This document shows, one piece after another, positions 6,416 to 51,902 of a DNA stretch of 64,000 bases. Position 1 is the stretch's first letter. Each line of letters starts with the position of its first letter. A program made the position numbers and the translations under genes. Origin of the DNA: Terriglobia bacterium (GTDB lineage Bacteria; Acidobacteriota; Terriglobia; 20CM-2-55-15); contig CBDCLE010000024.1 of the NCBI GenBank assembly GCA_965218585.1, positions 321,037-385,036 of the forward strand, in the 5' to 3' direction. The notes under the pieces were generated by a model. The model made no database searches and was not told where the DNA came from. It saw only the letters and a list, made by a program, of their open reading frames with translations.

Positions 6416-6940
6416 TCAGAAAATTCCCAGGGGGCGATAAAAAGTGATCAATCGTCCGCAGGTGATGATCGCCAGCCACAGGACCAGCGAAACTCCACCG
6501 ATTATCCTGGCGATCTTCGGGGTCTGCCCACCGACTTCGACACCTGCGACGTCGCGATAGGTGGTGGTGTAGAAGATGAGCACGTTGATGCCTGTCAGGA
6601 ACATGAAAATCATCTTGAGTTGAAACGCGGCGTTGTACATGTACTGATCCGGCTCACCTGTGAAAAAGAGGCTTCCCGTGATCATGTTCATTCCGTAGCC
6701 GAGAATACCAACGGGCACGAGTCTGTGCAACGTCTCTGGTTTGATGTTCTTAAAGAGTCCCAGCAGTCGCAGATCGAACAATCCAACGGTACCGATCAGA
6801 AGCGAGAGCCCCATAAAGTGGAGTGATTCGAGGATAGGCCACAAGTACGGGCTGCCTGTGACCCACATCGACAACGCACTGTTGTCGAGCCAGAGTCGGA
6901 AGGATGTGACGATTTCAACAGACAGTAGAAAGTCGGTCAT
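6416..6940 (-). CDS. DUF6644-like 4-TM membrane protein
   Basis: Four hydrophobic helices; ESLHFMG, DLRLLG, FQLKM and GRLITF motifs. Confidence 0.75.
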   Translation of the reverse strand: MTDFLLSVEIVTSFRLWLDNSALSMWVTGSPYLWPILESLHFMGLSLLIGTVGLFDLRLLGLFKNIKPETLHRLVPVGILGYGMNMITGSLFFTGEPDQYMYNAAFQLKMIFMFLTGINVLIFYTTTYRDVAGVEVGGQTPKIARIIGGVSLVLWLAIITCGRLITFYRPLGIF

Positions 6941-6950: not shown

Positions 6951-7454
6951 TTAGAAAAAGAAAATGTCTTCGCTTGTCAGGCGGCTATAGGTGTAGGCCA
7001 GCAGACGCCCAGCTGTTGTCGCAGAAGCCCAGAGAAAGAGCGATGTGCCAGCCATAATCTTCACCTTCTTCGGAACAAGGCCATCAGAATCAGGGTTGCG
7101 AATATGCCTTCTCAACTGTCTCAGAAGGAGGAGGGCTGCCGCAATGAGAACGAGTTTCAGGTAGAACACCGGGTTCGTGAAGGCTTTTACCGGATATGCA
7201 ATGAGCAAGGCGATCCCGGACAGGACGTTGACGAAGAGTCCGAACCACATGACGGGGAACACACGATCCAGGGAACGTAGAGGGATCGATTGGGCCAAGC
7301 CGAGGATTCTGACGTTGATGGCGGCATTGGTACCGACCAGAAAGGCCATGCCAAAGGCATGGAGTGTCAGCGGCAGGGGAAACGCCAACATCGAGGATGA
7401 CTCGCGGAGCCAGCTGCCGAAGGCACTCTGTTCGAACCAGATCAGGATATCCAT
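6951..7454 (-). CDS. DUF6644-like 4-TM membrane protein (paralog)
   Basis: LTLHAFG, NVRILG, FYLKL and GRLLAY motifs, collinear with the neighbouring gene. Confidence 0.75.
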   Translation of the reverse strand: MDILIWFEQSAFGSWLRESSSMLAFPLPLTLHAFGMAFLVGTNAAINVRILGLAQSIPLRSLDRVFPVMWFGLFVNVLSGIALLIAYPVKAFTNPVFYLKLVLIAAALLLLRQLRRHIRNPDSDGLVPKKVKIMAGTSLFLWASATTAGRLLAYTYSRLTSEDIFFF

Positions 7455-7538: not shown

Positions 7539-7922
7539 TCAGGGTCGGCTTCGAATCCAAGTCCACCCGTCCGAAGGACGTTCGATGCCTTTCAAATGGA
7601 TCTTGTGCTCCGCGGGGTTTCGACCCGGACTGCCGGTGAGGATTATCCAGTCGCCCGCCTTTAGAGTGTTTTCGTTCACTCCGGCTCTGCCGAGCCGGTT
7701 GACGTTGGCCCATTCTGCCGCAAACATCTGCATCTCACCGTCTTCGTCGGGTGCCATTACGTAAATCCATGCGTGGGGACTTCTCAGGGTGAACTCGAAG
7801 AGCTCACCTTCTACCGAAACTAACCGATCTTCAAAATAGAAACGGGCGAACGAATGGTGTGCGTATGCGGGGATGCCCACAGCGAGAGTGAGAAGAACCA
7901 GGCCCGTCAACAGACGTTTCAT
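7539..7922 (-). CDS. DUF6152-like exported protein (copy A)
   Basis: Signal peptide ending AYA followed by HHSFA; SPHAWIYV; GDWIILTGSP. Confidence 0.8.
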   Translation of the reverse strand: MKRLLTGLVLLTLAVGIPAYAHHSFARFYFEDRLVSVEGELFEFTLRSPHAWIYVMAPDEDGEMQMFAAEWANVNRLGRAGVNENTLKAGDWIILTGSPGRNPAEHKIHLKGIERPSDGWTWIRSRP

Positions 7923-8046
7923 GCGCTTGCTCTCTTCAGCCAGCATGCTCTTAGCTTAATACCGACCGAGGAAAACGGAAAAGCCAAAAACAGATAAATC
8001 CCTGCAGACGACCACTTAGGGAAGCGTCCGTTGCGGGGGAGTCTGC

Positions 8047-8865
8047 CTAATACCACTCGCGGATTCGCACCTCGATGTCGCTCTCGCTGCCGAGAGCGTT
8101 CCGAAACACCTCGGGGTCCTGACCACGGAAGTGATAGGGATAGACGATTGAAGGTCTGAAGGCCTTCGCGCAGTCCGCCGCTTCCTCCGGCGTCATGGTG
8201 AAGGGCAGGTTCATCGGCAGAAAAGCGACGTCGATGTTCTCCAGCGCCTGTATTTCCGGGACACACTCGGTGTCTCCGGATACGAAAATCCGTCGTTCGC
8301 CCATCGTTACAACGTATCCCTGGCCCCGACCCATTGGGTGGTAGAGCCCTCCTTCTTCCGGCCCCCGAGTGAGGTTGTAAGCAGGCACGGCTTCGATTCC
8401 GATGATCGTGTCCGGAAGACGGATCGCGCTGTACTCTCCGTTTAAATACACGGTGGCGGTAGTGATCGTGTTCCAGACCTCACGGGGCGCTATGGTGACC
8501 GCCCCCGGCTTTCTCACCGATTGAGCCGCGTCGGGATTCATGTGGTCGCCATGGATGTCGGTGATCAGGACAATATCCGCTCTGCGGTCCTGCATTTCGG
8601 AAAAATCACCCACAGGATCCACGTAAACTCTTCTCCCGTTCAATTCCAGCATCAGGCTTGCGTGCCCGATCGGGGTGATCGTCACGTCGCCTTCCGTGCT
8701 TTCGATGACGTCGGATACTGTGGGATTGTGCGGTGGCGCGGCTTGGCCACCACGACCGCGCTGGGCGGCGGATAGTTCGCTGCAGGGAATCCAGATGAGC
8801 AGAGCGCCATCCAGCAGGACGAGGCCCAGGCTGAACAATCGATTCTTTCCCAGGACGTCTTTCAT
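8047..8865 (-). CDS. Exported MBL-fold metallo-hydrolase
   Basis: GHASL, TDIHGDH, SGDTE and YPYH motifs; signal peptide. Confidence 0.88.
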   Translation of the reverse strand: MKDVLGKNRLFSLGLVLLDGALLIWIPCSELSAAQRGRGGQAAPPHNPTVSDVIESTEGDVTITPIGHASLMLELNGRRVYVDPVGDFSEMQDRRADIVLITDIHGDHMNPDAAQSVRKPGAVTIAPREVWNTITTATVYLNGEYSAIRLPDTIIGIEAVPAYNLTRGPEEGGLYHPMGRGQGYVVTMGERRIFVSGDTECVPEIQALENIDVAFLPMNLPFTMTPEEAADCAKAFRPSIVYPYHFRGQDPEVFRNALGSESDIEVRIREWY

Positions 8866-9143
8866 GGTGTATCCCCTCTATTGGTCCAAATGAGCGGTTC
8901 GATAACTAGGTAACTTCCTGTAGCTATTCCATATATTTGGGAAAAGCATTGCAACGGGCCCCCGATGGAGGGCTAGAGTTCACCGTTTACCGCACCGTGG
9001 CGGAGCAGTCAATGAAAAACCCTTTGAGCCCCCCCATAGAGTTGAACTTCGGAGTTTTTCCGACCTTTCGAGCCCTTTCGGTTTCTCGGCCGAGTTCAGA
9101 GGCGATGTTGATCCGGGGTTGGATCCCGTCGCGCCTGCGCGGG

Positions 9144-9512
9144 TCATTCACCAGGAAGGAGCGTCAGCTCTGATCCAGAACACTGATTCCCCAAATACAT
9201 CCCGTGCGCTTCGGGATTCCTCGCTGGACAACCGACAGCGGTTATGGCCCGTCCTTCTTCCCACCCGGCCGCATTCGACATCTCGACACGGTTGCCCCCA
9301 TAAATAGTCCAGACAACCGTTTCTCCATCCGGCTCGGTGACTTCAACCAGCATGTAGGAGTGGGGATTCACCAACCTCAGGTCCACCACTACCCCGGTGA
9401 CTTCCTCGGTGCGATCCAGAAAATAGAACGTCGCCTGCGAGTGGTGCGCCTCGAGGGGAAGGGTGAGGATCAAGAAGATGCCCATCATAAGGACTGAAAT
9501 TCCAACTTTCAT
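9144..9512 (-). CDS. DUF6152-like exported protein (copy B)
   Basis: Signal peptide ending LEA followed by HHSQA; NPHSYMLV; GGAG RBS upstream. Confidence 0.8.
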   Translation of the reverse strand: MKVGISVLMMGIFLILTLPLEAHHSQATFYFLDRTEEVTGVVVDLRLVNPHSYMLVEVTEPDGETVVWTIYGGNRVEMSNAAGWEEGRAITAVGCPARNPEAHGMYLGNQCSGSELTLLPGE

Positions 9513-9553
9513 TTCTCTATTCTCCTTAAGCATGATTCCAAAATTGTCTTCGC

Positions 9554-10360
9554 CTATTCATCGCTGTGTTTCGGCGGAAGCATCGTCAGCGGTGCTGCCG
9601 CAGAGGTGGGATCGCAATCCACAATCCAATTGATCTCCCGGTCGGTCCGCTCGTATTCGAGGGTTTCTGTATAAGGCCGTGTGAGGAAAACAGGATCCTC
9701 AACGGTCAGGACCAATCTTAGACGGTCGGGTCCGACGAGCGAATAACGTTCTGTGACGTGCTTGGCCCAGGAAGAGGGGACCTGCGACTGATAGTCCATT
9801 CCGTTGGGATCAAAGGTAAAGTTACGCGTCTCGATGACGAATTCGTCCTCCTCGTAGCGCCCGATCGAATGGCCGTAGAAGCCGACGTCGCCCGGCGGTG
9901 GGAACCCCCGGCCATCTGTCCAGATCGTCCGGGCGACCGTATAGGCCATGCTTCCTTCGTTTTCCCAGATGACGCGGTCACCTCGCTGAACGAGCCGTAT
10001 GGGGTTCATCCACCCGAAAGTGCTTGGAATGGATTCGGGTATGCAATAGAACTTGCCCTCGACAGGTTCGTCCTGGAATGCCAGCCACGCGCGCGTCCGT
10101 GCGTTGATATGATCGGACCAGTCGAACCTGCAACCGCGACGGGGCAACTGACGTACGTCTTCCTCGATGATGAAGAAGGGCCCGCACGCCGGCGGATTGG
10201 ACCGGCTCACCCGATCCCAGGTCCCGCTGATGTCTGGTATTTCGCCGTTCTGGGCCTCGGACCGGGCCGAAAGGTTCGTCGCGCCCACCAGGACGGCAAG
10301 CGCCATGAAGAAACTCGTGATCACAGTTTTCCGTCGCCTGTCTTTAGATCTGCTTGTCAT
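9554..10360 (-). CDS. Exported DUF6152-partner family protein (copy 1)
   Basis: Signal peptide; PDISGTW, CIPES, RTIWTDGR, YGHSIGRYE, TERY, TVEDP and DCDP motifs. Confidence 0.8.
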   Translation of the reverse strand: MTSRSKDRRRKTVITSFFMALAVLVGATNLSARSEAQNGEIPDISGTWDRVSRSNPPACGPFFIIEEDVRQLPRRGCRFDWSDHINARTRAWLAFQDEPVEGKFYCIPESIPSTFGWMNPIRLVQRGDRVIWENEGSMAYTVARTIWTDGRGFPPPGDVGFYGHSIGRYEEDEFVIETRNFTFDPNGMDYQSQVPSSWAKHVTERYSLVGPDRLRLVLTVEDPVFLTRPYTETLEYERTDREINWIVDCDPTSAAAPLTMLPPKHSDE

Positions 10361-10397: not shown

Positions 10398-11201
10398 TTA
10401 TTCGTCTGAATATTTCGGCAGCAGCATCAATAGCGGTGCTCCTGCGGACACTGGATCGCAGTCGGTAATCCACTGGATCTCCCGATCCGTGCGGTCATAT
10501 TCGAACGTTTCTGTATAGGGACGGGTCAGAAACACGGGGTCTTCGACGGTCAAGACCATGCGCAGGCGGTTGGGGCCTATGAGCGAATAACGTTCGGTGA
10601 TGCGTTTGGCCCAGGAGGAGGGCACCTGCGACTGATAATCCATTCCGTTGGGATCAAAGGTGAAATTCTGCGTTTCGACGACCAATTCATCGCCTTCATA
10701 CCGCCCGATCGAATGCCCATAGTAGGCCACGTCGCCGGGGGGAGGGAGGGGGCGTCCATCTGTCCAGAAAGTACGGACGACGGTCGCCGCCATGCTCGCC
10801 GAAGATTCGGTGACGACGCGGTCACCTCGTTGCGATATCCGTACGACTCCTCGCGCCAGCGTACTCGGGATGGATTCCGGAATACAGTAGAACTTACCTT
10901 CGACGGGTTCGTCCTGAAACGCCAGCCACGCGCGAGTCCGCGCGTTGATATGATCGGACCAGTCGAATCTGCAGCCACGGCGGGGCAAACCTCGCTCGTC
11001 TTCTTCGATGATGAAGAAGGGGCCGCACGCGGGCGGTCGGGTGCGCTCTACGCCCTGCCAGTTGCCGCTGATATCCGGCAGGTCCCCTGCTTCGGCCGGT
11101 GACTGGGCCCTGAGCCCTACCGCACCCACAATCATCGAGACGCCGACCAGAGCAGCCGTAGCGATTGTGTTCCAAGCGCCGAGATGAGATGAACGCGTCA
11201 T
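10398..11201 (-). CDS. Exported DUF6152-partner family protein (copy 2, tandem paralog of copy 1)
   Basis: Long identical blocks with 9554-10360; GGAGG RBS before the ATG at 11201. Confidence 0.8.
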   Translation of the reverse strand: MTRSSHLGAWNTIATAALVGVSMIVGAVGLRAQSPAEAGDLPDISGNWQGVERTRPPACGPFFIIEEDERGLPRRGCRFDWSDHINARTRAWLAFQDEPVEGKFYCIPESIPSTLARGVVRISQRGDRVVTESSASMAATVVRTFWTDGRPLPPPGDVAYYGHSIGRYEGDELVVETQNFTFDPNGMDYQSQVPSSWAKRITERYSLIGPNRLRMVLTVEDPVFLTRPYTETFEYDRTDREIQWITDCDPVSAGAPLLMLLPKYSDE

Positions 11202-11465
11202 TTCTGTCCTTCCTCCTGTCACAAGCGCACTCCGCGCTGCACACGTCTCGCTCTTCCCAGAGCCGACCCGATCTCGTCGTGGTCGAACTGTTTACCGGAT
11301 TGCTTCGTTACCAATACATCCCAAAAAGAATTCGTACGATTGGAGCAAATCTAACTACAGATTGGAGTTGTACGCAAGAAAAGTCTCCGATTCCCCTCAA
11401 CCCGGGCCGGAGCTTTATCGACGATCCGGGGTAACGCGTTGTTCAATTACGCGCTCCCGGAATAA

Positions 11466-13814
11466 TCAGAAGCGCAGTTTCGTCTGAACGGTGAACTGGC
11501 GGCCCGGACCCAGTGCCGTTCCCGAAAAAACGCCGCTGAAGTTGATCACGTTGAGGTGATCGGTCGCGTTGCGCAGGTCGAACTGAACCGATACCGACCG
11601 GTCCTGCTGCTCCCACAAGAGCAGCCCCAGAGAAACATCGACGCTGAACACCGAGCGGAGCCGCCCCCAATCGAAATCAACCCGGTCGAGGATCGCCTGC
11701 GAGATCTGTTGTGTGTCGGCGTCGGGTTTGCTCCCGTCATCTTCACCCCCATCATCGTCCTCGAGTTCCACGGGCAACCCGCTGCCGTAACGGACTCCAC
11801 TGGAAAACCAGAACCGTCCCTCCGGCTGGACACGGAATAACGCCGACACAGTGTTACGCTGATCCTGACTGATTGAGAAACGTTCCCCGGGGAGTCGTAA
11901 TTCGTCGGCTTCGCCGCCTTCGATAAATAGTCCTCCCGTAACCGGTGAGGTCGCGTGCCCGATCATGTTCGAGTAGCTAGCCGATGAAGACAGCCAACGC
12001 CAGGAGGGCAGATCGAGGCGCACCTCGGTGCCTGTAACACGGGCCGTGTTGAAACTGATAGGGAACGATAAACCCGTGTTCAGAAAGACGTCGTCGTCCA
12101 CATAATTCCGGAATGTCCGCCAGTACTGACTGATGTCCAGGCGCACCGCATCGAAGAATGGTTTGCCGAGGCCGACTTCAAAGAAATGACCGCGTGAGGC
12201 AGGAACGGCGACCGATTCGGAGACTTCGTCCAGTCCCAGCTCTCCTGCCGCACTGCTGAACAGGAGATTCTCAGTCGGCGGAGGTTGAAAGATGCGGTCA
12301 TATGCCGCCCGTAATTGTATGTCCACCGCCGGAATCCAATAGCTGACGGCAACCCGCGGACTGACGGCGTCATCATTGATCAGGAAATCATAGTGGTCAT
12401 AACGGAGTCCGATGTTTGCCGCAAAGTTTCCTAAGCGCACCTGGTCCCGGACGAAAAGGGAAAATTCCTGACTCTGCTTCTCGCCCTGAAAGTCTACATC
12501 GAAGCCCGGATGAGCTTCGGTTTCGCCGAAGCGGAATGCCTCTCGTATATCGCTGATTCGAACATCTCCACCAAATTTCAGCGTATGACGCTCGTCCTCG
12601 AAGGTGAGGTCTGCTATCAGCGTCGACTCCCGGAAACCTCGATCCTGTTCGACGCGTACGGGTGTCGCCTGCGGATTGCTCCAGAGCCGGGCCGAGAGAT
12701 CGCGATGCATGAATCGAACGGTTCCCAGGACATTGGTTGAAACAACTCGCTGGTAGTTCACCCCCAAGGCGGTCTCGCCGGAAAACCTGTCTTGTCGTTG
12801 GCCCGCTTCTTGCTGGGTGAGGTCGTTCGGGACCAGGAACCGGCTTTCACCAGTCCGCACATAGAACGAAATCCGATCCTGGGGAGTCAAATCGTGGTCA
12901 ATCCGAAGATCAAAACCGCCCGTCGTCGCCTTGTTCGTGAAGTTTTCCCTCGACGGAGGGTCCAAGTAACGGTCGGTCGAACCACCCCGACTACCAAGAG
13001 AAATCGACGTGTTGTCGGTCCCAACCTGGTATCGAATGGATCCGGCGCGGTTGTCGAAGCTGCCGAGCTGGGTGTCGATCTCGATTCCGTGGCCGGGCGT
13101 GCCGACTCTACGGGTGTCGAGAGCTATGACACCACCGAGACGTCGACCATATTCGGCCGGGAGACCACTGGTCATGACGTTAACGGCCTCAAATTCGGCC
13201 GTCTCGAAACCAGGAGCGAAGCCGATCGACCGGTTGTCATAGACGGGCATCCCGTCCACGACGTACTGGGTGTCGTATTCCGATCCTCGAGGATGAAGGA
13301 CCGCGTTAGCTTCTACCAGCCAGCCCGGTAGAGTCGTGACGACATCCACCGCGCTGCGGCCGAGGGTTGTCCCTGCAATCCTCTCGAGCTCGGTGCGGCC
13401 GATCTGCATCACTGCCGCGGGCTGAGCGATGTCCAGGAGAGGGGCCGTATCGGTCACCGTAATGGCAGTCGAGGTCCCTGCTACTTCCAGTGAGACAGTA
13501 ATGTTGCGGGGAATGGCCGTCCGGATTTCAATCGTAGTGCCGAACTCTCGAAATCCGATTCGGCCGACCGTGAGGCGATACGTTCCCGGCCGCAGCCGTA
13601 GCATGCGCGCCAGCCCCTCCGGGCCTGTCTCGGCTCTGGCTTCGAATCGGGGATTCCGGCCTGCCAATTCGACATCCGCGAGAGGGAGGGCCAGCCCCTC
13701 GGAGTCGGTGACCAGAACGCGGATTTCTCCTTCCATAACCTGGGCCTGTGCGAGACCTGTTCCGAACAGAACGATAGAGAGCAATCGGATCCAAGTGCCG
13801 AGTTCTTTCATCAC
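11466..13814 (-). CDS. TonB-dependent receptor with N-terminal carboxypeptidase-regulatory-like domain
   Basis: Signal peptide; LRPGTYRLTV; plug HPRGSEYDTQYVVDG and PAEYGRRLGGVI; GLRYD; C-terminal LRF. Confidence 0.88.
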   Translation of the reverse strand: MMKELGTWIRLLSIVLFGTGLAQAQVMEGEIRVLVTDSEGLALPLADVELAGRNPRFEARAETGPEGLARMLRLRPGTYRLTVGRIGFREFGTTIEIRTAIPRNITVSLEVAGTSTAITVTDTAPLLDIAQPAAVMQIGRTELERIAGTTLGRSAVDVVTTLPGWLVEANAVLHPRGSEYDTQYVVDGMPVYDNRSIGFAPGFETAEFEAVNVMTSGLPAEYGRRLGGVIALDTRRVGTPGHGIEIDTQLGSFDNRAGSIRYQVGTDNTSISLGSRGGSTDRYLDPPSRENFTNKATTGGFDLRIDHDLTPQDRISFYVRTGESRFLVPNDLTQQEAGQRQDRFSGETALGVNYQRVVSTNVLGTVRFMHRDLSARLWSNPQATPVRVEQDRGFRESTLIADLTFEDERHTLKFGGDVRISDIREAFRFGETEAHPGFDVDFQGEKQSQEFSLFVRDQVRLGNFAANIGLRYDHYDFLINDDAVSPRVAVSYWIPAVDIQLRAAYDRIFQPPPTENLLFSSAAGELGLDEVSESVAVPASRGHFFEVGLGKPFFDAVRLDISQYWRTFRNYVDDDVFLNTGLSFPISFNTARVTGTEVRLDLPSWRWLSSSASYSNMIGHATSPVTGGLFIEGGEADELRLPGERFSISQDQRNTVSALFRVQPEGRFWFSSGVRYGSGLPVELEDDDGGEDDGSKPDADTQQISQAILDRVDFDWGRLRSVFSVDVSLGLLLWEQQDRSVSVQFDLRNATDHLNVINFSGVFSGTALGPGRQFTVQTKLRF

Positions 13815-13953
13815 GGTTGCCGTTTTTTTTCGATTCGTCTCAATTGCTTGCTGTCGAGGTGTTCCATCTGAGTTTGGGGATGACGTGTCCTCGAACGTCG
13901 AATTTCTTCTCTTCCCAATATCCTATCAGTTGGGAAGAGCTGCGTATTCTCGT

Positions 13954-18151: not shown

Positions 18152-20260
18152 CTACCGGGCCAGCGGATCGGGCCGTACCTGGAAATGTACGACAAGCGGC
18201 CTGTTTCCCTGACCGCCTTCCATGAGCCAGGGTGTCCGATCACCTTCCGAGACCCACAACCCGCGGCCCTTCCAGCCGGCATCCGGGTCGTCTATGCGCC
18301 CGTCAAACCCCTTGCTGTAGAAGCCCATCGGGTATGGAATACGGAGGGTCACGAACTCGCCGTCCACAAGAGCGTGAACGCCGTCAGCGAGGTTCCCCGT
18401 GGCGATCGGGACGTTCTCACCGAGTCCGGAAGAATTACGCTGGTCGACCCAGGTGTAGTAGCTGGACTCGACGCTGAACTCCGGCAAGTCGTCGAAGCCG
18501 GGCCCGGGCAGATCATGCAGGGTCCAGCCTTCCTGACAGTGGTCTCCGGTGGCATCCGGACCATTCAATGGCCCTGTGCATTTACTGCGATCAAACTCAC
18601 CCATGTGTCCGCTTCCAAGTGACGCCCAGACCACGCCGTTACGGTCGATGTCCGCGCCTCGGACCCCGAACCCCGGGGCCGGAGGACGATAGATCTCTCC
18701 GAGCCCGGTTTCCGGATCGTATCGGACGACGGCGCCCCTAGCCTGGAAGGCGTTCGATCCCCAGATAGAACCGTCAGCGGGGTTCGGCATTACGGCGTAG
18801 AAGCCCGCGTTGATTCGTGTGTCCATCTGTGGGTTTGCGGGTTCATCCGGTTCGGTCCAGTCGTCCCGTTGGCCATTACCATTGGTATCCAGAATGAGGG
18901 GCGACCAGCCCTGTGAAGCTTCGCTGTCGCCGGTCTCGTCATACATCCTGGTGTCGAACCAGCCGACCACGGGGCCACCGCCACTGGTCCAGAGCGTGTT
19001 GTTCTCGTCCTCGGCGAACTGAAGATGGTGCGTCCCGTAACAGGTGTCTATGGGCGTATATTCTCCGGTATCCGGTTCGTACACGGCCAGCTGCCGTCCC
19101 GAGCGGGCGTTGGGAAACAGTTGGGCGGATGGATGATCGGAACCTTCCTGGCAGAAATCCGGATTGTTCGGTCCCCGGACTCTTGCGGTGTACCAGACAC
19201 GGCCGTCTTGGTCGAACATCGGGTTGTGGGCGTTTGCCTGGCTGTCCCATATGATCTCCTCACCCCAATAGGGTGAAGCCGCATACGGAGGTGTGCTCGC
19301 CGTTGTCGGTGTATCCGGGTCCAGTACCCGAGCCCTCAAGCTGGTGTCCGTGTTGGCGACCGGGTCAAGGATCGGGAAATCGTCCGTGCTGAGCTCCGGG
19401 GCCCCATAGATCCGGCCATACGGGTTGAGGGTGGGGTCGCGGCGGTCGGTGGATGCTAGATCGTGCATATAGACCGAAGGGCTGCCCCAGTCCCGGACCG
19501 TCGCGACAACGTTCCGCTCGATCCCGGACGGTCTGTCCGGCACGGTCTCGGGTATCTCGCCGGCAGCAATACGATCGGTCCAGTCCGCCAGGTACTTGAT
19601 GGGAATGCCCTGCAGGCGGCCGGTCACCTGTCCCAGCATCTGTCCGCCGGCCTGCCCGGATTGAATCCGGCGCGTCCAGGCATCTTCGGAGGATTCGAAC
19701 TCTCCCAGGCTTTCCGGTATCGTGCGGGTCGATGCCTGACCTAGCTGGTGGCAACCGATGCAACCCATGTTCTTCATGAAAGCGAGATACGAGTTCATGC
19801 CCCCCGGAATGTTTTCCACTTCACTTTCTTCGGGCAGGTCCATCATGGAGTACCAGTGACTGGCAGGGTAGACCTGGGCGGCCGTAGCGGCGTCAGCAGC
19901 AACAACGGCGGTAAGGTCGAGCATGTCTCCGGGTGAGGCGGCCACCTTCGCTGAGTCGCTCAGACCATAGCCGCGAACCCAGATGTCGTAGTCTGCGCTC
20001 GGGAGATCGGGAACCACGTAGCGTCCCTCGTCATCGGTCACCACGATCCGGGCGAATCGTGTTTCAAATTCTTCTGTTTCCGCGATGACCCAGACGCCGG
20101 CTTCCGGGCCGTTGGCGCTGGTGACGACACCCCCGATATCGTCGTTATCGATCTGGAGTGTGGAACTTTCCGCCCCCTGACATCCCGTCATGACGACGAC
20201 CATCAGAATACCCAGAGCAAAAACGGTGCTTTTACAGTACAAGCCGTTGCCTATCCTCAT
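18152..20260 (-). CDS. Exported (lipo)protein: carboxypeptidase-regulatory-like domain, c-type heme motif and predicted beta-propeller
   Basis: Lipobox VMTGC; VVTDDEGRYVVPDLP; CIGCH; propeller-like repeats (DQDGRVWYT, DRNGVVWAS). Confidence 0.75.
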   Translation of the reverse strand: MRIGNGLYCKSTVFALGILMVVVMTGCQGAESSTLQIDNDDIGGVVTSANGPEAGVWVIAETEEFETRFARIVVTDDEGRYVVPDLPSADYDIWVRGYGLSDSAKVAASPGDMLDLTAVVAADAATAAQVYPASHWYSMMDLPEESEVENIPGGMNSYLAFMKNMGCIGCHQLGQASTRTIPESLGEFESSEDAWTRRIQSGQAGGQMLGQVTGRLQGIPIKYLADWTDRIAAGEIPETVPDRPSGIERNVVATVRDWGSPSVYMHDLASTDRRDPTLNPYGRIYGAPELSTDDFPILDPVANTDTSLRARVLDPDTPTTASTPPYAASPYWGEEIIWDSQANAHNPMFDQDGRVWYTARVRGPNNPDFCQEGSDHPSAQLFPNARSGRQLAVYEPDTGEYTPIDTCYGTHHLQFAEDENNTLWTSGGGPVVGWFDTRMYDETGDSEASQGWSPLILDTNGNGQRDDWTEPDEPANPQMDTRINAGFYAVMPNPADGSIWGSNAFQARGAVVRYDPETGLGEIYRPPAPGFGVRGADIDRNGVVWASLGSGHMGEFDRSKCTGPLNGPDATGDHCQEGWTLHDLPGPGFDDLPEFSVESSYYTWVDQRNSSGLGENVPIATGNLADGVHALVDGEFVTLRIPYPMGFYSKGFDGRIDDPDAGWKGRGLWVSEGDRTPWLMEGGQGNRPLVVHFQVRPDPLAR

Positions 20261-20438
20261 CTCGTTCTCTCCCTCAGGTGGATTTGGTTCCGCCGATTCT
20301 ATCATTCCGGTGGGTTCGGGCGTGTGTGTTAGTGAACGGTTGTTTTTCCCTCTCCGCGATGATATCCACTGTACTTGAGTGTGCCAAGTTTGGCAGAAAG
20401 CAGGTTACTGGCCCCATCTCGAAAAAGGACTGTGAATC

Positions 20439-20868: not shown

Positions 20869-22721
20869 ATGTGGAAAGTCTCCTTTGAATCCGCCACGAG
20901 CTTGGTCCTCGTGTCGATTCTCAGTGTAAGCATATCTCCGGTGGCTCTTGCCCAGGGCTTGAACGCTGGACCAGGGTCGAGCGAGGAGCAGCGGGCACGC
21001 ATGGAGTTGCCGGAGGTTGAATCTCGGGCCCGGGATTTCGCGACTGCCGAAGAACACTACGACTACCTGCTGGAGGAAGCTGACGGCGGCACCCGGCACA
21101 CGATGGCCACCATACCGGTCTGGGACGGACTCTGGGGTTCGGGGAACAACACGATGCCCGGCCTGTTCTTAGAAGATGGATCGCTGGCGATTGCCATGAG
21201 CCCAGGCGGAACTGTGAAAGAAGACGTCTTGACTCCTGCCTATGAGCAGCAGTTTCGGGAACGTCGAGCGGAACTGGAACAGTACGGCGAACAGCTCTAC
21301 GACCACCTGACCAACTGTGAGTACCCCGGTGCAGCGCGCTGGCTCTGGGAGCCGTATATCAAGGAGTTCGTCAACACGCCGAAACAGACTTGGATGCTAA
21401 ACGACATGATGAACGAGACCCGCCGCGTCTATATCGGTGCCGAACACGTCAACATCGAAGGAGCACACTCGGCGACCGGCGACAGTATCGGTTTCTGGGA
21501 TGATGACAAGCTGGTCCTGTGGACCAAATGGATTCAACCGGTCGACTACCTGCGCGGCCTACCGTTGACCAGCAATCAACTCGAGATGGTAGAAAGCTGG
21601 CAACAGATCACGGGAGAGGACGGGGCCAGAATGTTGGTCACCCAGGTGACGTTTTACGATCCCATCGGACTGGTCAGGCCACAGTCGGCCGTTTACAGTC
21701 ACAATTCCCGCCCGGACCTTGAGGAATTCGGTGTCCGGATCCGAAACTGGGAATGCCCGACCAGCACCAACTCTTACCTAAGGCGTGTTAACACTAATGA
21801 GCATGAATGTTTTATAATCAGGCATGGAGATCACACAGGAGCAGTATTGTCGCATCGAGCCGGAACTGCCGCGTCAGCGGGGCAACGTCAGTCTTTCGAA
21901 CCTGACGGTCTTGAACGCCATTTTGTATGTGGCTGAGCAGGGCTGCAAGTGGCGCGGTCTGCCCAAGCGCTTTGGCAACTGGCACACCATCTACACCCGG
22001 ATGAACCGCTGGTCCAAGAACGGGGTGCTCGACGCCGTCTTCGAAAAAACTCCAGCGCGAGCAACTGGTGCGCATCCGGGTGGAAGCCGTTTCGATGGAC
22101 TCGACCATTGTGAAGGTGCATCCCGACGGCACGGGAGCGTTAAAAAAAACGGTCCGCAAGCGATCGGCAAATCCCGCGGTGGATGGACCACCAAGATTCA
22201 TCTGGTTGCCGCGAATGCTCGAACGGCGATAACGTTTGCGCTCTCGCCCGGCCAAGCGCACGACGCCCCGCAGGGCCGCGATCTGCTCGCCGGCCTGGGG
22301 CCGTTGCCCGCGCCGCTGCCGCTGCTGATGGACCGTGCCTACCAGGACGACCAGACCCGCCAATTGGCTCTGGATTTTGGGTGGATTCCCGTCGTGCCGC
22401 CCAAGCGCAACCGCCTGGAGCCGTGGGAATACGACCGCGTGCTCTACCGCCGCAGGAACGAAGTCGAGAGGCTCTTCCGCCGACTCAAGGGTTTTCGGCG
22501 TATCTTCTCCCGTTTCGATAAACTCGACGTCATGTTTCCTCGCCTTCCTTCACTTCGCACTCATCGTCGAGGCACTACGTTAGTGTTAACACGTCCTAGC
22601 TGAGGACGGGACAACGCAGTTTTACCTGCCGGGAGATCTCGAATACAAGGATCCGCGCGGGTTTACGGATTTTCCGGATATCCCGGGTCAGTCGCTCAAT
22701 CCTATTTTCGATGCGCAATGA
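20869..22721 (+). pseudogene. Exported DUF6152-partner family protein (copy 3, divergent) interrupted by IS5
   Basis: NCEYPG, TRRVYI, GDSIGFWDDDKLV, FYDP and WECP motifs. Removing 21781-22598 restores ...NSYLAEDGTTQFYLPG...PIFDAQ*. Confidence 0.8.
21781..22596 (+). mobile_element. IS5 family (IS427-like) insertion sequence
   Basis: TIRs AGGCGTGTTAACACTA / TAGTGTTAACACGTCC; TA target duplication; transposase 21824-22583 with GCKWRGLP, SRGGWTTKIH, DRAY and RNEVERLFRRLK; slippery A-run at ~22142 plus extra indels. Confidence 0.92.
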
Positions 22722-22761
22722 GTCACTGAGGGCAAAGAGCCAAATGGAGAGGAAGACGACG

Positions 22762-23226
22762 ATGAAAAACCTAATGCTTGCCGCATTCGTGATCGCCACC
22801 TTGTGCGTGGCTGGTACGGCCACGGGCCACCATTCGTTCGCGATGTTTGATACAGCCCAGGAAATGTTGATTGAGGGACGTGTTGTGGACTGGCACTACA
22901 ACAACCCGCATAGTTGGCTGTATGTCGAAGCTCCCGATGAAAACGGTGAAATGCAGACCTGGAGTATTGAGGGGGCGGCACGGGTGCATGCTGCCCGTCA
23001 GGGCGTGACCGGTAACACGTTTCGAAAAGGTGAATTTGTCAGGGTGGTGATGAACCCTCTTCGGGACGGGCGACGCGCCGGTGCGGTGTGCATCGTCGTC
23101 AAAGAGGACGGAACCATTGCACAGCCGAATGACGGGACATGTATCGCAAACGACGTTATCGACCGGTGGGAGTCAAACGGGTGGTTTGAGACGACCGGTC
23201 ATCTCGACGTTCATCCTGCCGACTGA
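22762..23226 (+). CDS. DUF6152-like exported protein (copy C)
   Basis: Signal peptide ending ATG followed by HHSFAMFD; NPHSWLYV; PLRDG. Confidence 0.85.
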   Translation: MKNLMLAAFVIATLCVAGTATGHHSFAMFDTAQEMLIEGRVVDWHYNNPHSWLYVEAPDENGEMQTWSIEGAARVHAARQGVTGNTFRKGEFVRVVMNPLRDGRRAGAVCIVVKEDGTIAQPNDGTCIANDVIDRWESNGWFETTGHLDVHPAD

Positions 23227-23839: not shown

Positions 23840-24679
23840 ATGGATCATGCCAGTAGTTTCAGAACAGTAGCCAAGAGGGCTCGGGGCGCGATGATCTCTT
23901 TTTTCGTGGCAGCCGCCGTGCTGGTAGGCCCCATGGACATTGCAGCTCAGAATCCCACGATCTCTCCGGTCGGGTCGGATTTTCTTGGGACCTGGCGCAA
24001 GACGAGCCCGGGCGGAAACTGCGGTTCCCTCCTAGACCCTTTCGGCGGCCCTCGTGAGTTTTGTCAGTTTCCGGTCGATCAACTCGAACCGCTTTTGAAC
24101 GGAAGGGCCCGGGCATGGATCGAGTTTTCCGACGAAACCTTGTCGCCGAGATGGGCCTGCGTCGCGGCGGGAATCCAAACCGTGTTGACCGATGCCGGGG
24201 GCTACCTTTGGACCATATCCACGAGGCCTGATGCGGTCGTGCAGTCCTTCGAGCAGTCCAACTGGGTGCGTTACATCTGGATGGACGGCCGGGGCCATCC
24301 GCCTGCTACCGACATCTTTTATCACGGACATTCGATCGGCCGCATGGACGGCAACGTGTTGGTCGTCGAAACTACGAATTTTACGTTTGATCCGGATGGC
24401 TGGGACGACCAGTCCCACATCGCCACTTCGCATCTGAAGAAGTTGACCGAGCGCTACATACCCACCGGCACGGACACTGTGGAGATTGAATTCACCGTCG
24501 AGGATCCTGTTTTTCTGAAGGCGCCTTTTACGTGGAGCCATACGTATGGAAAGACCGATCAACAGTTCATCGGTTCCTGGGACTGCGATCCCGAGGTTGG
24601 CTTGCGGGAACTGTATCAGTCGATTCCGAGCAGGTACGAGGACGACACGACGCCAGCGAGGTATATAAACAGCTTCTAG
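23840..24679 (+). CDS. Exported DUF6152-partner family protein (copy 4)
   Basis: DFLGTW, WACV, RYIWMDGRGHP, YHGHSIGRMDG, ETTNFTFDP, TERY, TVEDP and DCDP motifs. Confidence 0.82.
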   Translation: MDHASSFRTVAKRARGAMISFFVAAAVLVGPMDIAAQNPTISPVGSDFLGTWRKTSPGGNCGSLLDPFGGPREFCQFPVDQLEPLLNGRARAWIEFSDETLSPRWACVAAGIQTVLTDAGGYLWTISTRPDAVVQSFEQSNWVRYIWMDGRGHPPATDIFYHGHSIGRMDGNVLVVETTNFTFDPDGWDDQSHIATSHLKKLTERYIPTGTDTVEIEFTVEDPVFLKAPFTWSHTYGKTDQQFIGSWDCDPEVGLRELYQSIPSRYEDDTTPARYINSF

Positions 24680-24691: not shown

Positions 24692-24862
24692 GTGGCGAAA
24701 CTTTTGGTTCCCACAATTTTGGCCGTTACCTTTCTTGTTCTGGCCGTCCCGATCCAGGCACACCATTCGATCACTGCACTCTGGTTTACGGACCGAAGCA
24801 TTCCGATCACCGGGCTTGTGCGTTCGTACGGACAAGAAGAACTCGAAAGAAACCTGGACTAG
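24692..24862 (+). pseudogene. Truncated DUF6152-like gene (copy D)
   Basis: GGAGG RBS and GTG start: MAKLLVPTILAVTFLVLAVPIQA-HHSITALWFTDRSIPITGLVRSY, then breaks before NPH at the IS1595 junction; not in the ORF track. Confidence 0.75.
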
Positions 24863-25151
24863 GCCACCAGATCCTTGTAGGGGAGCATGTCCGCGTTGAC
24901 GATCAAACGCAAGGCATCCCGGAAGATGTAAGGGTTGTCGCGGTTGTTGAAGCGCCATTCCAGTTCCTCAAGATAACGGTCCAGATGTTTCGCACTGATC
25001 TTATGGAACGATCCGACGATAGACCGCTTGAACAGGCTCCACACGCCCTCAATGCTGTTGGTGTGGACATCGCCGACAACCCATTCCTCAGCGGAGTGGT
25101 TGACGGTCTCATGGCGCGTGTCGTGATCCTCGATCCCGAGGTAAGACTTCA
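24859..25151 (-). mobile_element. IS1595 family (ISXO2-like) transposase 3' fragment
   Basis: HETVNHS...VHTNSIEGVWSLFKR...HLDRYLEELEWRFN; cut at the IS256 end. Confidence 0.85.
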
Positions 25152-28385: not shown

Positions 28386-29351
28386 ATGGCGTTCGGAACA
28401 GCAAAACTCGGCGGACTGGCGGCGTTGTCCGCTTTGATGGCCCTGGGGCTGACCAGCCCGCTCGACGCCCAGAGGGGTATTGCCGGGATAACCGATTTTT
28501 CTGGCGAGTGGGTCGACAACTCGTTTGAAGGAGACGATCGCGGCGGGCCCCGCACGGCGGGTCCGAGTCGAGCGAACGGACTCCAGCCCGATGCGTGGCT
28601 CGGCAACTACCTTGGCATACCCTACAACGACGCCGGACGGCAGAAAGCCGCAGCCTTCGATCTTTCCATCTATTCCCACCCCGCCTGGATGTTCAGACCC
28701 CACCCTGTCCAGTATTCGATGCGTGGGGTCATCGCCCAGTGGAGGATGTCGAAGGAAATCAATCCACTGAACGGCAGGTTAGTGGCCTATCGAATCACGA
28801 CTGGTTACAACCTCGACCGGATCATCTGGATGGACGGACGTGGGCACCCACCCGCTTATGCCGAACACTCCTACCAGGGCTTCTCGACCGGACGGTTCGA
28901 GCGTGGAATGCTGGTGGTGACGACCACGCACATGAAGCACGGATACCACAGGCGCAACGGCGCCCCGGCGAGCGACCAGGCGACGATGACCGAGCACTTC
29001 ATACGTCATGACGACCGGTTGACGATCGTGCAGTTCACTGAGGATCCGATATATCTCGAGGAGCCCTACGTTCGTACCGGGGACCATGTCCTGGCACGCG
29101 ATCGGCATGCGGCAATTGCTTTCATAGGTCCCACAGCCGCGGGCTGGGGTGCAATCGAAGAGGTCATGTGGGACGAGGGTTACCTTCCGCATTACACGTT
29201 GGGTACCCGTCACCCACAGCTTGCGGACTGGCTCGGAGTCCCCTATGAAGCGACTCAAGGGGGAAGTGAAACGATCTATCCCGAATACCGCGAGACGTTG
29301 AGGCAGTTGATGAGTGAAACCGGGACAAGCACATCCCGTGGTGGGAGGTAG
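28386..29351 (+). CDS. Exported DUF6152-partner family protein (copy 5, divergent subfamily)
   Basis: DFSGEW, RIIWMDGRGHP, QGFSTGRFE, TEHF and TEDPIYLEEP motifs; lacks Cys. Confidence 0.75.
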   Translation: MAFGTAKLGGLAALSALMALGLTSPLDAQRGIAGITDFSGEWVDNSFEGDDRGGPRTAGPSRANGLQPDAWLGNYLGIPYNDAGRQKAAAFDLSIYSHPAWMFRPHPVQYSMRGVIAQWRMSKEINPLNGRLVAYRITTGYNLDRIIWMDGRGHPPAYAEHSYQGFSTGRFERGMLVVTTTHMKHGYHRRNGAPASDQATMTEHFIRHDDRLTIVQFTEDPIYLEEPYVRTGDHVLARDRHAAIAFIGPTAAGWGAIEEVMWDEGYLPHYTLGTRHPQLADWLGVPYEATQGGSETIYPEYRETLRQLMSETGTSTSRGGR

Positions 29352-36075: not shown

Positions 36076-36145
36076 TTTGTGTTTGGCAAGACGATGAGCC
36101 AAAAGCTCGGTCAGCTTCGTCTGACCAGGGTGTAACTCGCCGAAC

Positions 36146-45700: not shown

Positions 45701-47290
45701 ATGTCTAATTTCAGAGTCTTGCTGATGGATGGAATTGATCGGGCAGGCGTCGATCTGCTTGGGAAAACCGAGGTCATCGAGCCGGTTGTCGAAGCAAAGC
45801 TTCCCAGGGACAAGCTGCTCGGAGTCGTTTCAGAGATAGATGGCATCGTCGTTCGCAGTGCCACCCAGGTGGATCGCGAATTGATCGAGGCGGCACCGGG
45901 ACTGAAAGTCATTGGTCGAGCCGGCGTCGGCGTAGACAACGTCGACATCGATGCGGCGACCGAGCGAGGCGTTATCGTGATGAACTCTCCGGGCGGTTCC
46001 TCTACCACGACGGCGGAACACACCGTGGCGATGATGTTCGCGCTGTCCCGCAATATTCCGCAGGCGTACGACCTTCTCAAGGAAGGCACGTGGGAGAAGA
46101 GTCGCTTCAAAGGCGTCGAACTCAGCGGGAAGACGCTGGGAGTCGTGGGGCTGGGTCGCATCGGCAGCGAGGTGGCGCGCATGGCCCAGGGAATCGGAAT
46201 GAACGTGATCGCGTACGATCCGTTCATTCGGCCCGATGCGGGTCAGACCGGCGGGCTTCACCTGGTTGCTCTGGAGGAAATCTTCGCCGAAGCCGAGTTC
46301 ATAAGCGTCCACACACCACTGACCGAGGAAACTCGAAACCTGATCAACACCAGTGTGATTGCCGGGATGAAGGACGGTGTGCGTCTCATCAACTGCGCGC
46401 GTGGAGGGATCGTCAACGAAGCGGATCTTGCCGACGCTCTGCGATCAGGTAAGGTTGCCGGAGCGGCATTCGATGTCTTCGAAACCGAGCCCAACACAGA
46501 TTCGCCACTGTTCGGTCTGGATAATTTTATTGCGACGCCGCACCTGGGTGCCTCGACGTTTGAAGCACAACGCAAGGTGAGCGAAGACATCTGCCGACAG
46601 ATTGCAGACTATCTGATCAAGAACACGATTCGGGGAGCATTGAATTTTCCGCAGCTCGACGCGGGACAGCTTGACCGCTACAAGCATTTCGTGGACCTCG
46701 TCACGCGACTTGCGACGTTCATCAGCCAGATAGCCGAAGGACCCATGGAAAACGTTGCGGTTCGGTATTCGGGAGAGGTATGCGACATGAACCTCGAGTA
46801 TCTGACCTCGACCGTCATGCGGAAGCTGCTCGCTCCGATCCTGGGTGAAGAGATCAACCTGATCAACGCCACGCGAATCGCCGAGCAGCGAGGTGTCAAA
46901 CTGGAAGAGACGCGTGTCCCAGTCCCGGAAAACTTCACTAGCCTGGTTGAAATCGAGGTCCGCACCGAAGACGAATCGCGCCGCGTGTCCGGTACGGTTT
47001 TCACAGACAAGCTGCCACGGATCGTGTCGGTAGACGGGTACGAACTGGAAGTGGTTCCCAGGGGCCACATGATTTTCTTGACGAACGACGACAAGCCCGG
47101 TGTCATTGGTGATATCGGGACGGTACTCGGAAAATGCAAGGTCAACATTGCGGGTATGCATCTGGGCAGGGAAATCGAGGGTGGAACAGCTCTGGCTCTC
47201 TTGTTGATCGACAATGCAGTGGACGAAGGAATTGTCGATCAGGTTCGCAAGATCAAGAACGTTCTGACCGCGAAAGCGATTCGAATCTGA
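45701..47290 (+). CDS. serA: D-3-phosphoglycerate dehydrogenase (with ASB/ACT domains)
   Basis: GRAGVGVDNVD, GLGRIG, INCARGG, TPHLGAST and DKPGVIG motifs. Confidence 0.95.
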   Translation: MSNFRVLLMDGIDRAGVDLLGKTEVIEPVVEAKLPRDKLLGVVSEIDGIVVRSATQVDRELIEAAPGLKVIGRAGVGVDNVDIDAATERGVIVMNSPGGSSTTTAEHTVAMMFALSRNIPQAYDLLKEGTWEKSRFKGVELSGKTLGVVGLGRIGSEVARMAQGIGMNVIAYDPFIRPDAGQTGGLHLVALEEIFAEAEFISVHTPLTEETRNLINTSVIAGMKDGVRLINCARGGIVNEADLADALRSGKVAGAAFDVFETEPNTDSPLFGLDNFIATPHLGASTFEAQRKVSEDICRQIADYLIKNTIRGALNFPQLDAGQLDRYKHFVDLVTRLATFISQIAEGPMENVAVRYSGEVCDMNLEYLTSTVMRKLLAPILGEEINLINATRIAEQRGVKLEETRVPVPENFTSLVEIEVRTEDESRRVSGTVFTDKLPRIVSVDGYELEVVPRGHMIFLTNDDKPGVIGDIGTVLGKCKVNIAGMHLGREIEGGTALALLLIDNAVDEGIVDQVRKIKNVLTAKAIRI

Positions 47291-47310
47291 CCTGTTCAAG
47301 CGATTTCGCC

Positions 47311-51495: not shown

Positions 51496-51902
51496 ATGAG
51501 ACTTCTGTTGTGTTCTCTGGATAGGTTTCATCTCTGCAGCGACGCCCCTCTGGGCCCATCACTCGTTTGTAGCTGTGTTCGATCGAGCCCAGCCCGTCAG
51601 CGTGACCGGAACGATCACGAAGGTGGAGTGGACGAACCCGCATATCTGGTTTTATGTCGATGTTGACGGTGGAAATGGAGAGGTGACGACGTGGGGCTTT
51701 TCGGCCGCACCTCCAGGTGTCCTCATGAGACGAGGCATCACCAGAGGATGTCCTCGAGCTTGGATCCGTGATCAACGTCGAGGGTTTTCGAGCCCGGGAC
51801 GGTTCCAATAACGCCTCTGGCGGGCGTGTGACGTTCCCCGACGGCCGGAACGTGTTCACGGCTTCAAGAGAAGATGCTGCTCCCGAAACCGAACGCAGGT
51901 AA
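51496..51902 (+). pseudogene. DUF6152-like exported protein (copy E), two apparent frameshifts
   Basis: Reconstructed as ...TPLWA-HHSFVAVFDRAQPV...EWTNPHIWFYV...RRGITR/DVLELGSVINVEGFRARDG...ERR*. Confidence 0.75.

Follow-up and report, generated by a model that had tools for sequence, protein, structure and literature searches.

What do the DUF6152 proteins do, and does the pair of histidines that they would expose at the mature N-terminus bind a metal? The question is raised by a stretch of 64,000 nucleotides from a Terriglobia bacterium (contig CBDCLE010000024.1, positions 321,037 to 385,036 of the forward strand), the whole of which we call the window. The window holds five DUF6152 (PF19649) genes or gene remnants, c1 to c5. 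A sequence-only reading of this DNA had noticed that a signal-peptidase site is followed at once by His-His-Ser in every copy, and had proposed a new histidine-brace copper chaperone or redox enzyme subunit on a small beta-barrel scaffold. Our analysis confirmed the observation and partly supported the interpretation. A metal site using the N-terminal histidine is probable, and the fuller proposal, in which DUF6152 would also serve as a carrier or relay in the cell envelope, is put forward tentatively.

Histidines behind the signal peptide

The five copies are given below, with a slash at the predicted cleavage site (ORF, open reading frame; aa, amino acids).

7539..7946, minus strand: DUF6152 copy c1, an ORF of 135 aa (Pfam PF19649, E 6.7e-19, 68.2 bits); signal peptide 7860-7946, His1-His2-Ser3 codons 7851-7859, Pro28-His29 codons 7773-7778; cleavage context IPAYA/HHSF, later motif SPH.
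9144..9533 (alternative start 9512), minus strand: DUF6152 copy c2, 129 aa (PF19649, E 2.1e-12, 47.4 bits); His1-His2-Ser3 9438-9446, Pro28-His29 9360-9365; cleavage context LPLEA/HHSQ, later motif NPH.
22711..23226, plus strand: DUF6152 copy c3, longest ORF 171 aa (PF19649, E 1.5e-27, 96.0 bits); His1-His2-Ser3 22828-22836, His28 codon 22909-22911; cleavage context GTATG/HHSF, later motif NPH.
About 51496..51902, plus strand: DUF6152 copy c4, frameshifted (PF19649, E 1.7e-21, 76.6 bits); His1-His2-Ser3 51557-51565, Pro28-His29 51638-51643; cleavage context TPLWA/HHSF, later motif NPH.
24692..24862, plus strand: DUF6152 copy c5, truncated, 56 aa, aligned by tblastn; His1-His2-Ser3 24761-24769; cleavage context VPIQA/HHSI.

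Copies c1 to c4 all score above the PF19649 gathering cut-off of 27 bits, and the earlier assignment to DUF6152 stands on these scores; the 56 aa of c5 gave no Pfam match in the scan. When the histidine codons were inspected individually, HHS was found right behind the predicted cleavage site (AYA, LEA, ATG, IQA and LWA) in all five copies, in agreement with the ORFs. The (-3,-1) rule, the hydrophobic core and the n-region fit in each of the five. Cleavage before His1 is predicted from that rule and the core, and the context in the window copies and in their relatives supports, as a prediction, the free His1-His2 N-terminus that had been suggested. The Pro-His motif is kept in all four copies of sufficient length, where its histidine is mature residue 29 (c1, c2 and c4) or 28 (c3). 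Local alignments give only 30-45% identity between the copies in the mature region, as low as had been claimed, and the only residues common to all window copies are His1, His2, Pro28 and His29.

Two parts of the sequence-only reading had to be amended. It had counted four full-length copies with (N/S)PH about 28 residues on; the motif is indeed present in c1 to c4, and c4 is frameshifted and not intact. That copy is spread over three frames, with an ATG at 51496, an HHS frame at 51500-51811 that has no start codon, and a C-terminal piece at 51768-51902. Because it is read in three frames, c4 is either a pseudogene or the product of an assembly error. The interval 7539..9512, to which the five copies had been assigned, holds c1 and c2 and includes the gene of a metallo-beta-lactamase (MBL)-fold hydrolase; the other three copies lie outside it. 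The remaining copy, c5, stops after 33 mature residues, before the Pro-His motif, and directly 3' of it lie an IS1595 transposase fragment and then two more insertion sequence (IS) elements.

We searched 1.84 billion cluster representatives (50% identity) and obtained 4079 relatives with E<=1e-3. Among the matches listed, 131 of 149 cluster representatives (50% identity) had HH within the first 90 residues, and in those 131 the motif read HHS in 118 and was followed by PH at +28 in 112 and at +27 in 13. A signal peptide followed by HH(S) was found in 108 of 112 close homologs, the remaining four being N-terminally cut or extended. The residue preceding HH was Ala, Gly or Ser in 108 of 109 and in 126 of 129 relatives, position -3 was small or aliphatic, and a hydrophobic core lay ahead of the site in 108 and 127.

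The family alignment comprised 263 sequences (three window copies and 260 relatives), and setting aside 13 with incomplete N-termini left 250. Both HH and the histidine of PH were kept in 242 of these. HH was missing with PH kept in five, all with apparently miscalled, chimeric or fused, or frameshifted N-termini; HH and the PH histidine were lost jointly in two sequences with genuine signal peptides (P0191 and P0231); and the last is an internal fragment. In two of the alignments (A1 and A4) the rows were picked for having HH, which makes His1 and His2 invariant by construction; the invariance of Pro28 and His29 did not arise in this way. No methionine or cysteine column reached 80% conservation in the family alignment, so that a site in this protein would be of the N/O-donor type. 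The c1 subfamily keeps Glu49-Trp50 at about 95-98% conservation, and c2 and c4 lack it.

Histidine is the first mature residue in 2.6% of the signal-peptide proteins in the SignalP 6.0 training set (PMC12537917; this and the other papers cited here are quoted from excerpts). Set against that baseline, the family counts indicate that HHS follows the predicted cleavage site more often than chance would place it there. The motif, its invariance across the family and its (-3,-1) context are direct observations; the motif is real and family-wide, and it is almost certainly functional.

Fold and candidate metal site

We modeled mature c1 with AlphaFold2 from 112 aligned sequences. The model has a predicted local distance difference test score (pLDDT) of 93.7 and a predicted template-modeling (TM) score of 0.84, and contains strands 14-26, 29-37 and 43-49, a helix at 53-58, strands 71-79 and 86-94, and a short strand at 99-102. 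This order of elements is that of an oligonucleotide/oligosaccharide-binding (OB) fold, a closed barrel of five beta-strands in which a helix separates strand 3 from strand 4. Foldseek against the PDB returned OB-folds only among the best 50 matches listed (SSB, the LysRS anticodon-binding domain), with E 3e-4 to 3e-3 and query TM 0.41-0.57, and PF01336 is precomputed for two homologs. The small beta-barrel scaffold that had been proposed thus reappears in the model as a predicted OB-fold. PDB sequence and profile searches returned nothing for DUF6152, which has no solved close relative.

Strand 2 of the model begins with His29, which lies at the tip of the beta1-beta2 hairpin. Mutual information with average product correction, run on 187 of the 263 sequences (effective number 141, kinship between sequences uncorrected), recovered the beta2-beta3 register through the pairs 30-48, 31-46/48 and 33-45, which places residue 49 opposite His29. 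It also coupled N-terminal residue 7 to residues 46 (rank 16), 55, 30 and 31. These couplings are weakly consistent with packing of the N-terminal arm beside His29. Mean-field direct-coupling analysis of 230 of the 263 sequences was dominated by gap artifacts, and its result was set aside.

DUF6152 would accordingly be read as a Sec-exported OB-fold protein of about 105 residues that signal peptidase I cuts directly before His1. It would carry one mononuclear N-donor metal site of the histidine-brace type, formed by the alpha-amine and imidazole of His1, by His2 and by His29 in the beta1-beta2 turn; in the c1 subfamily Glu49 would probably lie on the neighboring strand. Cu(II) would be the likeliest metal from precedent, with Ni(II), Zn(II) and Co(II) also possible. 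We infer the closeness of His1, His2 and His29 in space, the binding of a metal, its identity and the direction of any transfer. A brace is defined by a cleavage-exposed His1 and a second, distal histidine (PMC10952591), and an exposed N-terminal histidine is an intrinsic chelator, every characterized family found on that principle being reported to bind metal in the excerpts of PMC12537917. Conservation, analogy and the model together make a brace-type metal site the best reading of DUF6152.

The closest precedents are the secreted families with an N-terminal histidine that are called signal-strapped: DUF4198, DUF6702 (with a tri-histidine brace of His1, His28 and His32) and the anglerases Ang-1/Ang-2, which bind metal and are described in the excerpts as lacking significant enzyme activity (PMC12537917). 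Like these, DUF6152 is a secreted bacterial family of unknown function with a conserved histidine, predicted in its case, as first mature residue. Its second histidine lies about 28 residues on, as in DUF6702, and it has TonB-receptor neighbors, as DUF4198 does; for the signal-strapped families, metal capture or carriage is supposed rather than catalysis (PMC12537917). Their scaffolds are beta-sandwich or Ig-like, in contrast to the predicted OB-fold of DUF6152, which also differs from the families as excerpted in its invariant His1-His2 dyad, its calycin-like partner and its pair of DUF6644 membrane proteins. DUF6152 is absent from the text of PMC12537917 and from five of its six supplement files.

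CopC and CopD (YobA and YebZ in E. coli; PcoC and PcoD) offer a second parallel, namely a small periplasmic beta protein encoded beside a multi-helix membrane protein. CopC has a mature N-terminal histidine (YobA reads VWA/HAHL), as predicted for DUF6152, and DUF6644 gives sub-threshold matches to CopD and DUF2214. CopC is a cupredoxin-like sandwich, not an OB-fold, and unlike DUF6152 it has neither His2 nor a calycin partner. By analogy, DUF6152 would work most like the signal-strapped N-terminal-His proteins and CopC/CopD, on a different scaffold and with different partners.

We compared DUF6152 with other metal-binding families and found membership in none of them. For CopC, hhalign with E. 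coli YobA gave 0.5%, and there was no CopC Pfam match. The lytic polysaccharide monooxygenases (LPMOs, AA9-AA17), X325/Bim1 and PmoB, which carry the canonical copper histidine brace, resemble DUF6152 in that predicted cleavage exposes His1 and a distal histidine is invariant. DUF6152 is nevertheless no LPMO: its sole Pfam match is to DUF6152, its fold is an OB-fold and not an Ig-like or FnIII-like beta-sandwich, and unlike LPMOs it carries the extra invariant His2.

CusF, a periplasmic OB-fold Cu(I)/Ag(I) chaperone, is like DUF6152 a small periplasmic OB-fold. The E. coli CusF precursor (L005 5132-5464) reads AQA-NEHHHE, with HHH three residues after the AQA that aligns with the DUF6152 cleavage site. 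The hhalign match is weak and not significant (77 columns, probability 13%, E 0.0022), DUF6152 has no conserved methionine column, and CusF is not among the best 50 Foldseek matches, so that membership was rejected. CusF has a Met/His/Trp Cu(I) site. It belongs to an efflux system, unlike the receptor-linked DUF6152 module. NlpE combines a lipocalin-like domain with an OB-fold; hhalign gave 0.7% and 3.2% against DUF6152 and its partner, with no sequence relation. In Bacillus subtilis, the extracytoplasmic copper-binding domain of YcnI (DUF1775) exchanges Cu(II) with the CopC-CopD protein YcnJ (PMC8424229, PMC12362106, both as excerpted). YcnI differs from DUF6152 in family and fold, and the Pfam scan of the DUF6152 copies matched DUF6152 only.

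The gene module

On the minus strand of the window, c2 and c1 stand in a cluster that runs in the order TonB-dependent receptor, partners B and A, c2, MBL-fold hydrolase, c1, two DUF6644 proteins and dienelactone hydrolase. These genes, and those near the other copies, are the following (nt, nucleotides).

11466..13814, minus strand: TonB-dependent receptor-type outer-membrane barrel with a CarboxypepD_reg N-domain (Pfam), at the head of the cluster.
10398..11222, minus strand: partner B, a secreted paralog of partner A (72% identity), both being about 270 aa long.
9554..10360, minus strand: partner A, a secreted protein of 268 aa, modeled as a FABP-like calycin barrel; 20 nt separate its end from c2, which lies downstream.
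8047..8865, minus strand: secreted MBL-fold hydrolase between c2 and c1 (Pfam Lactamase_B_3, E 2.8e-19).
6951..7454, minus strand: DUF6644 membrane protein a, four hydrophobic segments (by alignment and by Pfam, E 3e-5, 24.7 bits, just below the 27-bit cut-off).
6416..6940, minus strand: DUF6644 membrane protein b (Pfam DUF6644, E 7e-7; sub-threshold DUF2214, E 0.056).
5212-6099, minus strand: dienelactone hydrolase, last in the cluster; its N-terminal segment is YqhI-like, and it has a twin-arginine-like signal (RRGFLDG).
18152..20305, minus strand: second TonB-dependent-receptor-like gene, 2.4 kb from c3 (CarboxypepD_reg, E 3.1e-5, below cut-off).
23840..24679, plus strand: partner C, 279 aa, 36% identical to A and B, between c3 and c5; ends 12 nt upstream of c5.
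24859-25044, 25188-26480 and 26724-28043: transposase genes of the IS block after c5, namely an IS1595 fragment, an IS256-type gene (Transposase_mut) and a DDE_5 gene.
28386..29351, plus strand: partner-like ORF of 321 aa beyond the IS block, with no adjoining DUF6152 (tblastn 28797-29144, E 5.6e-12 to partner C).
47134..50238, plus strand: third TonB-dependent receptor, 1.3 kb upstream of c4 (OMP_b-brl_4, E 7e-178; TonB_dep_Rec_b-barrel, E 4e-11).
52018..52605, plus strand: partner-like gene split over two ORFs, downstream of c4 (tblastn).

A receptor or receptor-like gene thus stands beside each of the three window clusters by Pfam, the assignment of 18152..20305 being tentative because its CarboxypepD_reg match is below cut-off. 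The first receptor (11466..13814) also gave weak TIGR01785/6 matches, far below cut-off.

We analyzed the partner proteins in the same way as DUF6152. They have no Pfam or NCBIfam family, and PDB sequence and profile searches with them were empty; the partner-like ORF at 28386..29351 also has no Pfam family. The model of partner A (pLDDT 80) points to a calycin fold, a class of antiparallel beta-barrels with an internal cavity. Foldseek gave it 85 PDB matches with E<=1e-3, led by CRABP2, CRBP and FABP4, with target TM 0.6-0.65. The partner family has conserved cysteines, many conserved Asp, Glu and Arg residues, and one histidine that is nearly invariant in GHSIG. An Atlas search with partner A returned unnamed clusters only, plus a lead scored 0.79 to a cluster in which 17% of the members carry PF19649.

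Each DUF6644 protein has four hydrophobic segments, and His41, Arg58, Lys109 and Arg163 are invariant; an invariant histidine lies in the first hydrophobic segment. Sub-threshold DUF2214 matches were obtained for five of 12 sequences (best E 4.7e-5, 23.8 bits against a cut-off of 34.1) and a sub-threshold CopD match for one of 12 (E 0.0062, 17.3 bits against a cut-off of 32.1). An Atlas search with DUF6644, its own family excluded, gave no usable match, and NCBIfam has no family for DUF6152, the partners or DUF6644.

Outside the window we examined eight loci, three on contigs of Vicinamibacteria metagenome-assembled genomes (MAGs; single-protein query) and five in sphingomonad plasmid regions. 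A partner-like gene adjoins DUF6152 in all eight, and a DUF6644 pair lies within the flanks retrieved in five. Against the partner profile, hhalign gave 98.9-99.8% for the four plasmid genes tested. TonB-dependent receptors are annotated in two of the loci (L007 and L010), and the three plasmid DUF6152 proteins that were translated all read A-x-A/HHS followed by NPH. Of the eight plasmid records with a match, six have two to five matching places and two have one. The DUF6152 module is conserved in Acidobacteriota and Sphingomonadales.

The linkage of DUF6152 to its partner extends to a natural fusion, and both are seen directly in the genes. One protein of 346 aa, found on 7 contigs (P0292/P0304), consists of a signal peptide, HHS, DUF6152 and a partner domain that matches the partner profile at 97.3% by hhalign; it was the single fused protein returned by a search for longer DUF6152 proteins. 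A second natural fusion to a small-molecule-binding fold (P0227, 266 aa) joins DUF6152 to a SnoaL/DUF4440 (NTF2-like) domain. That the calycin-like partner is conserved, and in some cases fused to DUF6152, gives real support to the idea, in the sequence-only reading, that DUF6152 could be a subunit.

The surroundings of these modules vary. The Sphingobium plasmid locus L010 (AP027331.1, 1-12261) has two partner-DUF6152 pairs, a DUF6644 pair and a TonB receptor, and the module is embedded in genes of the organosulfur-scavenging type (a luciferase-like monooxygenase, TauD, an SsuA-like binding protein and a peroxiredoxin). Just downstream of DUF6152 lie, in one Vicinamibacteria locus (L001, 3001-7908), a 710-aa pyrroloquinoline quinone (PQQ) dehydrogenase, a glucose-methanol-choline (GMC) oxidoreductase and a creatininase-family gene, and in another (L003, 8439-9776) a PQQ_2 beta-propeller.

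In the window, two exported hydrolases accompany the module, since the dienelactone hydrolase has a twin-arginine-like signal and the MBL-fold hydrolase is secreted; the latter scored 81.7 bits with NCBIfam NF001911, below the 144-bit cut-off. A scan for promoters and terminators found nothing telling, and the 541 bases upstream of the first receptor were inspected by eye. An inverted repeat, TTCCCAA-N11-TTGGGAA, lies at 13909-13937 on the minus strand, about 100 nt upstream of the receptor start at 13814, and is a possible operator; we take it to be unlike a Fur box. At 51400-52605 both c4 and the next partner-like gene are frame-broken and the upstream receptor (47134-50238) is intact, and the segment is either a decaying third module or a place of local assembly errors. 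The region is rich in IS elements, with an IS5-like DDE gene at 21824-22603 and Transposase_mut at the window end (63031-63999), and the IS block at 24859-28043 parts the truncated c5 from the partner-like ORF at 28386-29351. A dense run of metal-dependent hydrolases follows at 29729-41633 (four amidohydrolases, an M20 peptidase, a polysaccharide deacetylase and an arginase-family gene), which suggests a nitrogen-compound catabolic island.

Metal carrier, oxygenase or another role

Within a conserved envelope module, DUF6152 may be the periplasmic component that carries the metal. It would be joined there by a calycin-like partner for small molecules, by two DUF6644 proteins that span the inner membrane with four helices each and, in many cases, by a TonB-dependent receptor. 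We prefer to see it as a carrier or relay, comparable to CopC in its work with CopD or to DUF4198 beside TonB receptors: standing between the receptor in the outer membrane and the DUF6644 pair, DUF6152 would accept or pass on either a metal or a small metal-bearing ligand that the calycin partner holds. The receptor, the DUF6644 pair with its faint likeness to CopD, and the small size of the protein favor a carrier.

Several results weigh against this proposal. Among the 57 window ORFs scanned there was no copper-handling gene (CopA, Cus, multicopper oxidase, Sco, PCuAC, or CopC/CopD above cut-off), nor any regulator that responds to metal, and neither kind of gene was seen in the annotated related loci. 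The regulators near related modules are of the MarR and TetR types, which are usually sensors of organic molecules. Five copies in 64 kb, together with the multi-copy plasmids, stand amid heterogeneous catabolic genes (amidohydrolases and M20 peptidases in the window; the PQQ dehydrogenase and GMC oxidoreductase of L001; the luciferase-like monooxygenase, TauD and peroxiredoxin of L010), which fits substrate diversification better than metal homeostasis. The link between DUF6644 and CopD is sub-threshold only, and hhalign of 4 and of 12 DUF6644 sequences with E. coli YebZ (CopD) gave a probability of 0.2%. The first ten residues of the DUF6152 model, where the site would begin, are less confident than the rest (mean pLDDT 81). 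Finally, the characterized signal-strapped families prefer Ni over Cu in the excerpts of PMC12537917.

Paralogous modules in catabolic settings, and fusions to ligand-binding folds, favor chemistry on organic molecules or binding of them. It is possible, if doubtful, that a periplasmic oxygenase or peroxygenase has DUF6152 as its subunit for copper or another redox metal, with the metal site of His1, His2 and His29 oxidizing the substrate. The calycin partner would then hold a hydrophobic substrate received from the TonB-dependent receptor, and DUF6644 would supply electrons by the logic of MsrQ to MsrP. Such a role would suit the many paralogous modules per replicon and their varied catabolic or nutrient-scavenging contexts next to MarR/TetR regulators, as well as the finding that DUF6152 is fused to, or adjoins, folds for small organic ligands (the calycin partner, and SnoaL/DUF4440 in P0227). 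In two of the three MAG loci, a gene for a PQQ-type beta-propeller follows within 1.3 kb downstream. DUF6644 has its invariant histidine in the first hydrophobic segment and one weak match to UPF0093 (E 0.14). UPF0093 (HemJ) binds heme. Among histidine-brace proteins there are known oxygenases and peroxygenases (PMC10952591, as excerpted), whereas four characterized non-LPMO families with an N-terminal histidine are described in the excerpts of PMC12537917 as lacking significant oxidase or peroxidase activity. DUF6152 is also very small, with no evident substrate cleft in what could be inspected, and the supply of electrons by DUF6644 is pure conjecture. We rank the carrier or relay reading slightly ahead of the catalytic one.

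It is unlikely that the same site of His1, His2 and His29 binds Ni(II), Zn(II) or Co(II) and not copper, in a module for TonB-dependent uptake of a metal or metallophore. The precedents for this are close: DUF4198 has a facial N3 site with a Ni dissociation constant of 18 nM and stands next to TonB receptors, and DUF6702 (His1/His28/His32) binds Ni at 5.6 pM against 3.3 nM for Cu (PMC12537917, as excerpted). The conserved site residues of DUF6152 are of the N/O type only, and each of the three window clusters has a receptor beside it. The window and the annotated loci, however, showed no gene for NikR, Zur, Fur or a Cbi/Nik transporter, and the objection from the multiplicity of paralogs holds here equally as it does for copper.

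In its widest form, the catalytic reading would make DUF6152, the calycin partner and DUF6644 an unrecognized, widespread periplasmic copper oxygenase or peroxygenase system, which is very unlikely. A histidine brace on an OB-fold would act on small hydrophobic substrates, not polysaccharides, after TonB import and binding in the calycin barrel, with electrons from the membrane; a variant of this would be a system that strips metals from imported metallophores.

Calycin barrels can hold heme through a histidine, as in nitrophorin and nitrobindin, and an OB-fold heme chaperone exists in CcmE. A site without a free metal ion, in which the histidines ligate a cofactor (heme, a tetrapyrrole or some other) in common with the calycin partner, or have a structural, pH-sensing or partner-docking role, is very unlikely: the nearly invariant histidine in GHSIG of the partner and the weak matches of the first receptor to heme-receptor families (E about 1e-6, far below cut-offs) would suit it, but those matches are generic barrel similarity, the window scans found no heme-uptake or heme-degradation genes nearby, and an exposed alpha-amine with adjacent imidazoles is a strong intrinsic chelator of transition metals (PMC12537917, as excerpted).

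The claim of novelty holds in the sense that the family is unnamed in the literature searched. "DUF6152" and "PF19649" were absent from the 8.1 million PubMed Central papers and 0.36 million preprints searched, a scope that leaves out bioRxiv supplements and subscription journals. In the literature searched, "histidine brace" together with "OB-fold" returned nothing, and N-terminal histidine with TonB-dependent, unknown function and copper returned only an unrelated paper.

If a metal is bound, DUF6152, with at least 4079 clusters at 50% identity, would be a large new class of N-terminal-histidine metalloproteins and the first on an OB-fold, and would widen the range of scaffolds known to carry sites of the histidine-brace type. 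If the site is non-metallic, the invariance and the joint loss of the three histidines still call for explanation. The analysis also defines a three- or four-gene envelope module in which the calycin-like partner and DUF6644 are likewise of unknown function. Should the proposal be true, abundant genes of Acidobacteriota and Sphingomonadales would gain a role, and the sphingomonad plasmids would offer a tractable system for TonB-dependent import coupled to periplasmic metal chemistry.

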